A stretch of 64,000 bases of DNA, taken from the sequence record PZ386965.1. The stretch is one strand, 5' to 3'. A program made the translations under genes and the position numbers. This stretch comes from a phage. The first letter of the stretch is position 1; the number at the start of each line of letters is the position of its first letter. Below, one piece after another: positions 28,424-41,056 of the stretch. The notes under the pieces were generated by a model that did not search any database, was not told the DNA's origin, and saw only the letters and a list, made by a program, of their open reading frames with translations.

Positions 28424-28753
28424 TTATACTCTAGGCTTTTGAGCTTGTTTGGTATTGGATTCCCATGCGGCTTTGGTAATTTTGTTAGCGGCATAACCAA
28501 AGGCATTAGATAGAACACCTTTAGAGTTGAATACATCCAATCCAATAAGTACACCGGCTGCGTTAAATTTAGGAGCAAAGTACGCATTAGTTTTAGAAAG
28601 AGCTTTTTTCAATTCAGGGTCTTGAACCAAGCCATCAAAAACGCCTTTACTATTTACTTTATATGTTACTTTGGGATTCTTACCTTCTTCGATAGCAGCT
28701 TTCTGTTCCGCAGATAATGTAACTTCAGTGATAAACTCCTGATATGTTTTCAT
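28424..28753 (-). CDS. internal protein (capsid-targeting sequence MKTYQEFITE)
   Basis: 109 aa; N-terminal MKTYQEFI..E leader typical of T4 IPI/IPII/IPIII precursors processed by the gp21 prohead protease. Confidence 0.6.
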   Translation of the reverse strand: MKTYQEFITEVTLSAEQKAAIEEGKNPKVTYKVNSKGVFDGLVQDPELKKALSKTNAYFAPKFNAAGVLIGLDVFNSKGVLSNAFGYAANKITKAAWESNTKQAQKPRV

Positions 28754-28778
28754 TTTGTTCCTATTGTTTTAATTTATG

Positions 28779-29093
28779 TTATTCTTTAGGGAAGTTTTTA
28801 GAGTATGCATCATAAAGTTTATTACCAATACGACGGAAGACTTTAGCTGCAAAACGGTTTTCAGGGTTTTTAATCATGATTTGCATCATGTAAGTTCCTG
28901 CATCCGAAAGAGCTTCTTCATAGTACCCATTAATTTCTTTAAGAGTCCTACGTTTACCACCAGGACCGTCAACAGTAATTTTCCATTTACCTGTAGAAGT
29001 GCGGCTCGGTGGCTCAACTTGTTCAATCCAAATATAACCACCTTCAACGCGTTGGTTGGCGGATTCTGCAATAAATTCTTTATACGTTTTCAT
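28779..29093 (-). CDS. internal protein (capsid-targeting sequence MKTYKEFIAE)
   Basis: 104 aa; CTS leader; own early promoter at 29125-29154. Confidence 0.6.
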   Translation of the reverse strand: MKTYKEFIAESANQRVEGGYIWIEQVEPPSRTSTGKWKITVDGPGGKRRTLKEINGYYEEALSDAGTYMMQIMIKNPENRFAAKVFRRIGNKLYDAYSKNFPKE

Positions 29094-29124
29094 TTTTTGT
29101 TTCCTTGTTTGTTTTGATAGAGTA

Positions 29125-29154
29125 ATTATACCATATTAATACTTAAGCGTAAAC
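29125..29154 (-). promoter_or_regulatory. sigma70-type early promoter
   Basis: Minus strand GTTTACG-N17-TATAAT upstream of internal-protein gene. Confidence 0.5.
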
Positions 29155-29157
29155 AAT

Positions 29158-29418
29158 TTAAGCTTTACCTCCAGAAATAATTCCGAAGTTGTTAAAATCG
29201 TATCCAATATCGTCAACATCTACTTTAGGACTTACTACAACATAAGCAATTTCACTACGTTTTGCATAGGTGTTGATTTCTTTACCATCGCCACCTAAGA
29301 AAGAATACCCATTACGTTTTAATGAGCCAAAGTCTTCCGCATCACCAATGAAAGCTTTAACTTTAAATTTGGGGTCTTTGGCATCTGCTTCAATGATAAA
29401 TTCTTGATACATTTTCAT
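29158..29418 (-). CDS. internal protein (capsid-targeting sequence MKMYQEFIIE)
   Basis: Trimmed to ATG with AAGGA SD; 86 aa. Confidence 0.55.
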   Translation of the reverse strand: MKMYQEFIIEADAKDPKFKVKAFIGDAEDFGSLKRNGYSFLGGDGKEINTYAKRSEIAYVVVSPKVDVDDIGYDFNNFGIISGGKA

Positions 29419-29425
29419 TTTTTCC

Positions 29426-29839
29426 TTAGTAAATTGATTTACCATAGTATTTGTACCAAGACGGCCGTTGAGCAATTTTTTCATCTAAGCGTGCTTGACT
29501 TATCGCAATGGACGCTTCGGACGGGACGTAATTATTACGAAATTCTACAGGAATGTCGGAAATATCCTGGACAGTCGTGTCCTTGATTTTGAAACCACGT
29601 TTCAAGCATTCAGCGATTAGCTCGATTTGACGTAAACGTAAAAATTCGAGTTTGTCGTAAAAGAATGTTACGTGACCTGTGCCTAAGATAAATGTTGGAG
29701 AGATTTTAAAATCCTTTACACGTTTACCGTTTTGAACATGTTTACGGACTGCACCAAATACGCGTGGTAATTCACGATACTCGGCCATAAGATGTTGGTC
29801 GGCCAGTTCAGAAACAAGTGTTAAATTGATACGGGTCAT
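29426..29839 (-). CDS. denV: endonuclease V (pyrimidine-dimer DNA glycosylase) DenV
   Basis: 137 aa from [29 protein letters not shown]; matches recalled T4 DenV. Confidence 0.95.
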
Positions 29840-29866
29840 AATTTCCTCCAAGTAGTTGATGAATGT

Positions 29867-29896
29867 ATAGTATCAAAACTCTTGGAGGAAGTAAAC
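29867..29896 (-). promoter_or_regulatory. sigma70-type early promoter upstream of denV
   Basis: Minus strand GTTTAC-N18-TACTAT. Confidence 0.4.
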
Positions 29897-29897
29897 A

Positions 29898-30179
29898 CTA
29901 TTTTTCTGAAGCGCCTGAAATATATTTTTCAAGACGTTGTTTCATCAGCGAGCCGTTCTTAGCAATTTCTTCCGGTTTATCGCACATGCGCAACAATGCT
30001 TCAAGCTTAACGATATCACTGGTACGTTCAAATTTGCGAGTATCTATCTTACTAGCAAGTTCAGAAATACGTGCTAATAGACTTTCAGCTTCAACCAAAG
30101 CTGCACCTAGCTTAGTTGCAAATGTGTCAGTAGCTTCGTTAAGAATAGATTCTGATAAAAATTCACTATATGTTTTCAT
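29898..30179 (-). CDS. internal protein (capsid-targeting sequence [10 protein letters not shown])
   Basis: Trimmed to ATG; start codon overlaps lysozyme stop (ATGA); 93 aa. Confidence 0.55.
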
Positions 30180-38141: not shown

Positions 38142-38169
38142 AACATTTTCCTCATGTTTTGATAGGTCT

Positions 38170-38198
38170 ATAGTAACACATCTATGGAAGAAGTAAAC
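38170..38198 (-). promoter_or_regulatory. sigma70-type early promoter
   Basis: Minus strand GTTTACT-N16-TACTAT; GATAGGTCTATAGTAACAC core shared with 26252 and 19452 elements. Confidence 0.45.
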
Positions 38199-38250
38199 AA
38201 CTTTTTCAGTAAGTTATAGACCCCCTAATGGGGACCGAAGTCCCCATTCT

Positions 38251-38871
38251 TTACTTACGAGTTTTTGCATACTGAGCAGCGTCAGCAGCCAAACGACCTG
38301 CCTGACGAAGTTTTTCTTTAATCTCATCATGAAGTGGTTGAGTATACTTCAAACCTTCGATAGTCAAATAAAGACGATAAAGGTCTGGGGTGTCAAGGTT
38401 GTTGATATGTTGGCCATTACGAAGAATATTGAATTCACGAACGAGTGAAGATGTATCAGATTCAATATCACGAACAAGCGAAGATAGTTGTTTATATTTT
38501 TTTTCCAGGCTAGAAGTATCAAACTTAAGAGCAGGAGCTTTAGGAGCTGCTTTTACTTCCGGCTTAGGCTCAGGTTTTGCTTTAGGGGTCGCAGGTTTAG
38601 GAATGGTAGGAGCAGGTTTTACTTTAGGCGAACCAGATTTAGCAGAAACACCACCACTAACAATATCTTTGAATGCTTTAGAAGCTCTGTAATATTCTTT
38701 TTGGCTGGAAGTGTCGATACCATACATGGCTTGAACGTTTTTGAAAAACTCTGTACTAGTTTTTGTACCAGAAATAGCATCGTAAGCAGCTTGCCATTTC
38801 TCTTTTGTCATGCGTACACCGGCTTCGGTGATTACTTCCGTTTCGGCTAAAAATTCATTAAAAGTATACAT
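38251..38871 (-). CDS. internal-protein-like protein with CTS-like leader (MYTFNEFLAETE) and Pro/Lys-rich linker
   Basis: 206 aa; AAGGA SD; KPAPTIPKPATPKAKPEPKPEVKAAPKAPA low-complexity linker; late promoter 36 nt upstream. Confidence 0.5.
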   Translation of the reverse strand: MYTFNEFLAETEVITEAGVRMTKEKWQAAYDAISGTKTSTEFFKNVQAMYGIDTSSQKEYYRASKAFKDIVSGGVSAKSGSPKVKPAPTIPKPATPKAKPEPKPEVKAAPKAPALKFDTSSLEKKYKQLSSLVRDIESDTSSLVREFNILRNGQHINNLDTPDLYRLYLTIEGLKYTQPLHDEIKEKLRQAGRLAADAAQYAKTRK

Positions 38872-38906
38872 TGATGGTCCTTAGAAAGTAGGTTTATTGT
38901 TTACTA

Positions 38907-38914
38907 TATTTATA
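38907..38914 (-). promoter_or_regulatory. T4-type late promoter (TATAAATA)
   Basis: Exact TATAAATA on minus strand between terminator and the 206-aa CTS gene. Confidence 0.45.
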
Positions 38915-38915
38915 C

Positions 38916-38944
38916 AAAAAAGCCCCAACCTTTCGGAAGGGGCT
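38916..38944 (-). terminator. intrinsic terminator after tRNA/stable-RNA cluster
   Basis: Same AGCCCC...GGGGCT hairpin as 22639-22666, followed by T5-6 on minus strand. Confidence 0.55.
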
Positions 38945-38986
38945 TTATACCTTGTTGGGGTTTCCACCTACTAGGTAAGTGTTTGT

Positions 38987-39078
38987 ACGAAACGCCGGGA
39001 TTTGAACCCGGTTATTAAGTAGTTGACGCTACTCAATATTTTTAAAAGGCCATATCTCGACCATATCCGAACGTTCCG
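38987..39078 (-). ncRNA. tRNA-like stable RNA (perfect 7-bp acceptor stem and T-arm, non-canonical core)
   Basis: 5' CGGAACG pairs with 3' CGTTTCG; T-arm CCGGG-TTCAAAT-CCCGG; D and anticodon arms do not fold canonically; could correspond to T4 species 1/2 RNA. Confidence 0.35.
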
Positions 39079-39246
39079 TCAAAAACGCTACTCGGCTTAC
39101 GGCAAAGATATTTCCTCGAATCGTTAATTAGGTGCGCCGTTTCTGCTGTGATGTAAGGGGATATTAACAAATCGTAAAGATTTATTAAGACCAGTCCTTA
39201 CTCAGGGAACATCAGTCCGACGACTTGCCGGTAGCGACCCGGCTTC

Positions 39247-39591
39247 TTATTTTGGCATATCATCAATTTGCTCTCGACGCCGACGCCATAGATTAATCGC
39301 TTCATAAACACATTCAGCATTTGGTATATGGCGACAATAGTATAGTGATTCGCGTTTCTGGAACCGATGTTGTAATGGAATTTCGTTTAAAAGGTCTTTA
39401 CGGTCAAAGTATTCAAAACTAGTTAACCCGGAACGGTTTTTAAGAAACTTCCAATGTCCGAATTCATTTTTAAAATAAACGTAATCAGCGTGTTGATATA
39501 ACGAATTAATCAACCGGTCGGAAATAACTGTATCTTGTTCGTTAAAATAAAACGTTAAATCATGAACTACTAAGTAAACATTACCTTTCAT
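39247..39591 (-). CDS. hypothetical protein (tRNA-region ORF)
   Basis: Trimmed to ATG (MKGNVYLVVHD) with GAGGAAAA SD; ORF-track extension would overlap tRNA-Arg. Confidence 0.4.
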   Translation of the reverse strand: MKGNVYLVVHDLTFYFNEQDTVISDRLINSLYQHADYVYFKNEFGHWKFLKNRSGLTSFEYFDRKDLLNEIPLQHRFQKRESLYYCRHIPNAECVYEAINLWRRRREQIDDMPK

Positions 39592-39609
39592 ATTTTCCTC
39601 ACTTAAAGT

Positions 39610-39686
<77 letters not shown>

Positions 39687-39692
39687 AATATA

Positions 39693-39766
39693 TGACCCAG
39701 ACCAGATTCGAACTGGTAACCTTTCCCTTATGAGGGGACTGCTGCTAACCATTGAGCTACAGGGCC
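39693..39766 (-). tRNA. tRNA with CAU anticodon (Met or lysidine-type Ile)
   Basis: Manual fold: acceptor 6/7 bp, T-arm ACCAG-UUCGAAU-CUGGU, anticodon loop CUCAUAA; D-stem only 3 bp; no encoded CCA. Confidence 0.6.
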
Positions 39767-40768: not shown

Positions 40769-41056
40769 TTACAGAAGAGTTTTTGCAATAATTTTAAGTT
40801 GAGCTACAGAAATATGCTTAGCTTTAAACAGTGCGGTCTCTTCAGCCGGAGAGATAACAATAGTAGCGCCATCTTTCTTAGCAGACCATCCATCCCCTAA
40901 GTAAACAGTACCTTTTACTTCTTCGCCGTCAACCAGACTAATCATTGGTTTACCCTCACGGCCTTTGTTTGCTTTAATAACTTCGGAAGTAAGGGTTGCT
41001 TCGGTCAGAGTAGAAACGTTAGCAACAGGTGATATAAATTCTTTATAGGTTTTCAT
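40769..41056 (-). CDS. internal protein I-like (capsid-targeting sequence MKTYKEFI)
   Basis: 95 aa; CTS leader; position between tRNA region and 57B matches T4 ipI. Confidence 0.6.
   Translation of the reverse strand: MKTYKEFISPVANVSTLTEATLTSEVIKANKGREGKPMISLVDGEEVKGTVYLGDGWSAKKDGATIVISPAEETALFKAKHISVAQLKIIAKTLL

Follow-up and report, generated by a model that had tools for sequence, protein, structure and literature searches.

What does the 206-codon open reading frame (ORF) beside the tRNA cluster of a T4-type phage encode, and is its product carried in the virion? We addressed this question by computational analysis of a 64,000-nt stretch of phage DNA (sequence record PZ386965.1), referred to here as the window. 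The window comes from a T4-type phage of the genus Mosigvirus (RB69/JS09/HX01 group), and the 2 kb around the ORF are 95–97% identical to many such genomes. An original prediction, made from the sequence alone, had described the product as a two-domain protein with a capsid-targeting (CTS) leader and its own late promoter. The gene and its immediate flanks are laid out as follows.

38871..38251, minus strand: target ORF, ATG start, 206 aa, N-terminus MYTFNEFLAETEVITEAG
38882..38878, minus strand: Shine-Dalgarno sequence AAGGA, 6 nt before the target ATG, read directly off the sequence
38227..38248, minus strand: UUCG-capped hairpin ATGGGGAC-UUCG-GUCCCCAU and then UAGGGGG, directly after the stop codon (38251-38253)

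The gene falls within one of the two ip regions of T4, flanked by ipI and the tRNAs on one side and by the e.x genes on the other. Its protein has no paralogues in the window. The hairpin behind the stop codon has a predicted RNA folding energy of -15.5 kcal/mol (z = -2.0). The coding strand lacks a U tract there, and the opposite strand is terminator-like; the hairpin is likely a 3' end or stabilizer of the transcript. A very similar UUCG hairpin is found right after the stop codon of the distant Marfavirus orthologue (Klebsiella phage Marfa, locus L002, just after 3073).

Upstream on the minus strand, the order is tRNA-Met, tRNA-Arg, a homolog of RB69ORF150c, rnaD, rnaC, a hairpin, a late promoter box and the target ATG, which confirms the predicted position beside the tRNA cluster.

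39610..39766, minus strand: tRNA-Arg and tRNA-Met (tRNA-Arg at 39610-39686)
39131..39250, minus strand: homolog of T4 rnaD (stable species 2 RNA), a member of the tRNA operon; blastn identity 86.8% over 121 nt
38986..39123, minus strand: homolog of T4 rnaC (stable species 1 RNA), the last gene of the tRNA operon; blastn identity 98.6% over 138 nt
38916..38946, minus strand: intrinsic terminator of the tRNA/rnaD/rnaC operon; stem AAAGCCCC..GGGGCUUU, GAAA-capped inner stem, U6 tract
38914..38907, minus strand: T4-type late promoter box TATAAATA; exact match, 35 nt between box and ATG

An Rfam scan over the rnaC and rnaD homologs (38986-39250) gave no family matches because no Rfam family covers either RNA. 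A 42-aa ORF from the ORF finder list (39042..39170) falls inside rnaC/rnaD and is surely spurious. The RB69ORF150c homolog is a protein-coding gene inserted between tRNA-Arg and rnaD, where T4 has no gene; the ORF finder placed it at 39247-39639 (minus strand) with a TTG start at 39639 that overlaps tRNA-Arg, and its proper start is the ATG at about 39591 (MKGNVYLVV). The T4 homing endonuclease gene segB lies upstream of tRNA-Arg.

The hairpin in front of the target gene (38946..38919, with the U6 tract reaching 38916) combines a GC-rich stem with a U tract. Its predicted RNA fold is -19.2 kcal/mol (z = -4.2 relative to shuffles). An internal 2x2 mismatch in the stem hid it from a simple terminator scanner. 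Because the hairpin is homologous to T4 sequence downstream of rnaC, we take it to terminate the stable-RNA operon; RB69 has the same sequence up to the cassette breakpoint.

The number of TATAAATA sites in the window (9, compared with 7.8 expected from shuffles) is not significant when taken alone. About eight of the nine sites are correctly oriented and stand 13–55 nt ahead of a start codon, and an xATAAATA box precedes the orthologous gene by 28–38 nt at all ten loci compared, in nine genera (four with TATAAATA, four with GATAAATA, one with CATAAATA and one with AATAAATA). This placement and conservation therefore make the observation more than chance despite the unremarkable count. The box is a putative late promoter for RNA polymerase carrying gp55/gp33, and transcription from it would be late. 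The original prediction of a promoter directly after an intrinsic terminator agrees with both elements; the box is exact as claimed, and its distance from the ATG is 35 nt rather than 36. Read this way, the terminator would shield the gene from upstream transcription and the late box would be its only promoter. A sigma70-like promoter (GTTTAC...N17...TAnnnT) instead precedes T4 ipI, ipII and ipIII, three of six RB69 ip-type genes (p156, ipI and p124) and the window CTS ORFs at 41056 and 29093, and TATAAATA does not occur within 120–150 nt upstream of the canonical ip genes of T4, RB69 and the window. Of the Ip-type genes that we examined, the target alone has upstream signals arranged for late-only transcription.

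The N-terminus of the protein suggests where a late product might go.

38824..38871, minus strand: codons 1-16, capsid-targeting leader MYTFNEFLAE followed by TEVITE; gp21-type sites LAE (residues 8-10) and ITE (residues 14-16)

Genetic work on the T4 CTS assigns targeting to residues 4 and 7 and processing to residues 8 and 10; the motif of the prohead protease gp21 is L/I-X-E, and a foreign protein needs only the first 10 residues to be packaged (PMC9026906). All 672 Met-started frames of 40 codons or more in the window were scored over their first ten residues against MKTYQEFIAE, with BLOSUM62 and no gaps. The target leader scored 33 against a background mean of -1.6 (sd 7.4) and ranked 6th; the next unrelated frame below it scored 21. 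The five frames that outrank it are all of the Ip type and lie at the two T4 ip loci: one is IPI at 41056, and the other four are found at 28.4-30.2 kb. PHROG 'internal virion/head protein' families are matched by three of the five, and three homologues of the five are annotated as internal proteins in RB69. MYTFNEFLAE is identical to MKTYQEFIAE at six of ten positions and similar at three more. Phe4, Phe7, Leu8 and Glu10 are present, and the leader thus has the aromatic residue at position 4 and the Phe at position 7 of the Ip class. The target allele departs from the T4 CTS at position 2 (Tyr instead of Lys); Dhakavirus orthologues have the canonical leader MKTYNEFLNE.

Both LAE (8-10) and ITE (14-16) are L/I-X-E sequence motifs of the kind that ends such leaders. 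Glu16 is invariant in 17 of 17 aligned family members, including the most distant, and the leader end follows the pattern [I/L]-x-E-[A/S]. The same ITE|A also ends the longer T4 IPI leader. Purifying selection clearly acts on the leader and on Glu16 across nine genera, while the adjacent N-domain falls to 20–40% identity. To judge from its sequence, the leader is a real CTS variant, as originally predicted.

Including the target, six ORFs of the window bear a CTS; they start at 41056 (IPI), 38871 (target), 30179, 29418, 29093 and 28753. Those other than the target occupy two minus-strand regions, 28424-30179 and 40769-41056. The ORFs at 29093 and 28753 are paralogs with near-perfect CTS leaders, and both belong to PHROG 3966 ('unknown function').

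Beyond the leader, the target belongs to a small family of its own. It matches PHROG 2280 ('unknown function', E = 8e-58) and no other PHROG, and has no match in Pfam or NCBIfam. A profile search found only 13 matches among 1.84 billion representative proteins. Every named PHROG 2280 member is annotated 'hypothetical protein', and the family is confined to T4-type phages that infect enterobacteria. Its members are found in Mosigvirus, Dhakavirus (JS98 orf135), Winklervirus, Kagamiyamavirus, Kanagawavirus, Tegunavirus (fHe-Yen9-01), Karamvirus and Marfavirus, and in nine genera the family gene sits directly downstream of the tRNA cluster. As in the Ip class, the protein is small and basic (pI 9.7), and its gene is polymorphic, non-essential and located in the ipI-tRNA hot spot.

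We considered and rejected a divergent IPIII. Alignment of the family with the IPIII family (PF26861) by hhalign covers columns 1-28 only, at 55% probability, and the overlap (26-28 columns) consists of the leader and a 'K-D-x-W' stretch. A Pfam scan of the target gave no match to IPI_T4 (PF11634), which the neighboring ORF matches at 1e-50. The target thus lacks mature-region homology to either the IPIII or the IPI family. The other Ip-type ORFs of the window and T4 IPI and IPII match the family profile only at the leader. Yersinia phage fHe-Yen9-01 encodes both an IPIII homolog and a PHROG 2280 member. Leader-only similarity and this co-occurrence therefore indicate a separate family that shares a delivery signal, and PHROG 2280 is best filed as a separate, previously unlabelled family in the known class of CTS-bearing internal proteins.

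The family is present in 139 phage records. About 72 records carry the target allele at 90% identity or more, and about 156 Escherichia/Shigella-phage records carry the Mosigvirus-specific ORF003c; therefore roughly half of Mosigvirus carries the target allele. A link to DNA arabinosylation, an idea prompted by overlap with the genera listed in PMC13326640, is unsupported with the RB69 ORF003c transferase as marker. The transferase occurs only in Mosigvirus, Acinetobacter phages and one Tegunavirus, whereas the family is found in Dhaka-, Karam-, Winkler-, Kanagawa- and Marfaviruses and, among Mosigviruses, in no more than about half.

No family member was found in T4 across the syntenic 14 kb. 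RB69 has a divergent member in the same slot, split by a frameshift into ORF149c and ORF148c (NC_004928 73428-73990; 13429-13991 of the locus); the repaired 183-aa protein matches the family profile over its full length (50.7 bits), and the split marks a pseudogene unless the reference genome contains a sequencing error. Relative to RB69, the window carries unrelated sequence at 38156..38907 and becomes homologous again at 38908, on the border of the promoter box. In fHe-Yen9-01 (locus L001, 2501-3616), two family members stand in tandem: gp154 (189 aa) is followed after 9 nt by gp153, a protein of 178 aa with the leader MLEYSEFLKE that scores 36.8 bits against the family profile. The arrangement indicates local duplication and then divergence. 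Yersinia phage phiR1-RT lacks the family gene. Its unannotated gap between g133 and g132 holds a 14-codon remnant, SEATERMTKDKWQA (locus L011, 3834-3875), that matches residues 9-22 of the CHI14/EcS1 proteins at 100% identity and points to a recent deletion. A literature search found no virion proteome or transcript mapping of a family member; the relevant phiR1-RT virion proteome comes from this phage without the gene, and a preprint on the Mosigvirus AV110 contains no transcriptome.

What could the rest of the protein do? The original prediction of two domains separated by a linker agrees with an AlphaFold2 model of the target, built on a 10-sequence alignment, and the linker measures 40 residues rather than the 30 proposed.

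38647..38823, minus strand: codons 17-75, small helical N-terminal domain; three model helices; W26, F42, A66 and K68 invariant
38527..38646, minus strand: codons 76-115, Pro/Lys/Ala-rich basic linker, predicted disordered, net charge +7
38254..38526, minus strand: codons 116-206, three-helix C-terminal domain, the best conserved part; motif LRNGQHINNLDTPDLYxLYL..LKYTQP

The model places N-domain helices at residues 23-31, 39-50 and 57-71 (block-mean pLDDT 81-88) and C-domain helices at 120-151, 162-175 and 178-204 (block-mean pLDDT 78-87), the latter forming a coiled-coil-like helical hairpin. The linker, SAKSGSPKVKPAPTIPKPATPKAKPEPKPEVKAAPKAPAL, is disordered in the model (pLDDT 34-38). It is always present in the family; its length and sequence vary and its composition is kept. 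Further V/I-x-E motifs (residues 144-146 and 184-186) fall within helices that the model predicts with confidence. A signal peptide or membrane protein is not suggested, as the N-terminus is acidic and there is no hydrophobic segment.

The precursor is 23 kDa. Without its first 16 residues, the predicted mature form is 21.1 kDa with a pI of 9.73 and a charge of +13, nearly equal to mature T4 IPIII (20.4 kDa, pI 9.65). T4 IPIII is 193 aa long, and the target is therefore not twice as long as typical internal proteins, as had been claimed. Structure prediction of the C-terminal domain, proposed earlier as a check, yielded the three helices and no informative fold match. Foldseek searches with the target model gave only E > 1 against PDB and only family members against BFVD, and the best hit of a profile search of PDB sequences was an uninformative occludin coiled coil (E-value 0.016). 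In the Pfam, NCBIfam, PHROGs, PDB and BFVD searches, no homology or fold match supports a biochemical activity.

Comparisons within the family show a mosaic. Two metagenome proteins, P0020 and P0024, are identical at 71 of 75 positions through the N-domain and diverge at the linker; their C-domains have no detectable similarity (no BLASTP match at E <= 100), and the PHROG match of P0024 ends at residue 96. Compared with the window protein, fHe-Yen9-01 is 20% identical in the N-domain and 65% in the C-domain, and Enterobacter phage Q7622 (locus L009, 1501-2112) is 42% identical in the N-domain and at noise level in the C-domain. The main C-domain type is 65–78% identical across six genera. Relatives with a replaced C-domain retain the N-domain, and the alternative C-domain (GMKVFSNGKYG...LSYTI) likewise matches nothing in Pfam or NCBIfam. 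The mosaic of per-domain identities and the P0020/P0024 pair thus identify the linker as a recombination joint between modules, with a conserved carrier part on one side and an exchangeable C-terminal part on the other.

Taken together, the target is probably a late-made, CTS-targeted, processed and packaged internal protein, and the packaging proposed in the original prediction is a reasonable inference. We infer late transcription, packaging, cleavage, injection and the target in the host from conserved sequence signals and the T4 precedent. Early and middle transcription from the tRNA/rnaD/rnaC operon would stop at the terminator (38946..38916). Late in infection, gp55/gp33-modified RNA polymerase would start at TATAAATA and make a short, probably monocistronic mRNA. 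The CTS leader would carry the 23-kDa precursor into the assembling prohead core, and gp21 would cut after Glu10 (LAE) and/or the invariant Glu16 (ITE|A), removing the leader. The mature protein (about 21 kDa, pI about 9.7) would stay with the DNA and enter the next host before phage gene expression. There it would most likely neutralize a host factor, which by analogy with Ip1-3 would be a nuclease attacking modified-cytosine DNA. The C-terminal helical domain would be an exchangeable specificity module, and the N-domain and basic linker a conserved carrier or DNA-associated part.

The rank of the leader, the Glu16 site, the size and charge like those of IPIII*, the ip-region location, the polymorphism, the late box and the terminator all speak for this reading. 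Two observations count against it: canonical ip genes have sigma70-like promoters, from which the regulation of the target differs, and position 2 of the leader is Tyr instead of Lys. Within the packaged reading, an anti-defence role is a tentative possibility. The Ip1-3 precedent and the swappable C-domain favor such an effector; the conservation of the C-domain (65–78%, six genera) exceeds what would be expected of a fast arms race with variable host nucleases and counts against it. We regard as doubtful the more ambitious proposal that PHROG 2280 is a modular injection platform, in which a conserved late promoter, CTS, gp21 site, N-domain and rigid basic linker would be combined with interchangeable C-terminal 'warheads' recombining at the linker, analogous to polymorphic toxin/effector systems.

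The conserved main C-domain (65–78%) and the basic linker leave room for a general DNA-associated role. The packaged protein might be structural rather than a specific inhibitor, its linker binding DNA in the manner of histone H1 and condensing or organizing the genome or escorting its ends at ejection. Such a role would suit the charge (linker +7, mature protein +13), the constant position of the gene in nine genera, the strong conservation of its C-domain, the late expression alongside head proteins suggested by the late boxes, and a modeled helical hairpin that, being coiled-coil-like, could oligomerize. We nevertheless consider it unlikely. The gene is dispensable, being absent from T4 and phiR1-RT and frameshifted in RB69; its C-domains have been swapped for unrelated ones, which fits an adaptive module better than a structural one; and the linker is conserved in composition only, not in sequence. 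A prohead-core component of the scaffold type, cut by gp21 and expelled like gp22, gp67 and gp68 with nothing functional injected, is very improbable. The V/I-x-E motifs at 144-146 and 184-186 could serve as further cleavage sites, but they are inside confidently predicted helices, and T4 and many relatives build the same head without the gene. The C-domain is helical and coiled-coil-like as in scaffolding proteins, and the late boxes suggest co-expression with head genes. The target is nonetheless basic, like the retained Ips; the degraded scaffold proteins are acidic.

Packaging itself could also be wrong. The target may be a late cytoplasmic protein, such as an assembly helper or late regulator, whose CTS-like leader is a relic of recombination among ip-type cassettes. 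A promoter type unlike that of canonical ip genes and the departure from the T4 CTS at position 2 speak for this reading. We find it quite improbable, since the leader and Glu16 are under purifying selection over nine genera next to an N-domain of only 20–40% identity. Because the first 10 residues are enough to package foreign proteins in T4 (PMC9026906), a late-made protein carrying a CTS would be expected to enter proheads.

As a packaged internal protein, the target would belong to a class that is already known; what is new is an unannotated family, an unusual late-only promoter and a modular build. To a T4 specialist this may be unsurprising, yet it offers a concrete candidate for an injected counter-defence protein. 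T4 Ip1, Ip2 and Ip3 are all injected inhibitors of distinct GmrSD-type (type IV) restriction enzymes (PMC12373910), and each uncharacterized CTS protein is therefore a candidate for anti-defence activity that precedes phage gene expression. The family occurs in many Mosigvirus, Dhakavirus, Karamvirus and related phages under development for therapy, where recognition of its probable packaging would improve annotation of 'hypothetical' genes and point to a host-range determinant. The leader and linker could be a natural template for loading foreign cargo into T4-type capsids. If the modular platform were real, it would give T4-type phages with non-glucosylated (e.g. arabinosylated) cytosine DNA a strictly late-loaded counter-defence channel for the first minute of infection.

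Comparison with known systems places the target close to the T4 internal proteins in its delivery signal and apart from them in regulation and build. Ip1-3 share only the leader and no other sequence among themselves (PMC12373910), and homology therefore cannot decide whether the target is an inhibitor. Because Ip1-3 are themselves injected inhibitors (PMC12373910), the original contrast of a packaged effector with a scaffold-like IP is a false one. IPIII resembles the target in its CTS followed by an L/I-X-E gp21 site and in mature size and charge; it is a non-essential protein whose gene lies in an ip hot spot, and after entering the host with the DNA it inhibits a GmrSD-type restriction enzyme (PMC12373910). 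It differs in having no homology to the target past the first ~28 columns (hhalign), no evident Pro/Lys/Ala linker or two-domain architecture, and a sigma70-like promoter without a late box where the target has a late box. T4/RB69 IPI (PF11634) has a longer bipartite leader that ends in ITE|A, like target residues 14-16; the window IPI (41056..40769) lies about 2 kb upstream of the target and IPI is an injected GmrSD inhibitor. In contrast, IPI* is a single domain of 76 residues with no similarity to the target outside the leader, and its promoter is of the early type.

In the accounts of Repoila et al. (1994) given in PMC12373910 and PMC4122927, the polymorphic CTS-bearing internal proteins of T-even phages are unrelated, small and basic, with only the leader in common. 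Cassette exchange at ip loci, with breakpoints at regulatory sequences, is described in PMC4122927, citing Repoila 1994. The breakpoint between target and RB69 is likewise at a regulatory sequence, the promoter box. Unlike those sporadic genes, the target family keeps one syntenic slot over nine genera, is driven by a late promoter and is itself modular, its C-domain being swapped at the linker. The PeSLs of T4-like phages are promoter/stem-loop cassettes with early sigma70-type promoters (PMC4122927, PMC2839356). The target shares their order of stem-loop, promoter, Shine-Dalgarno sequence and start codon, marking the edge of a swapped segment, but its promoter is of the late TATAAATA type and its stem-loop is the terminator of the stable-RNA operon.
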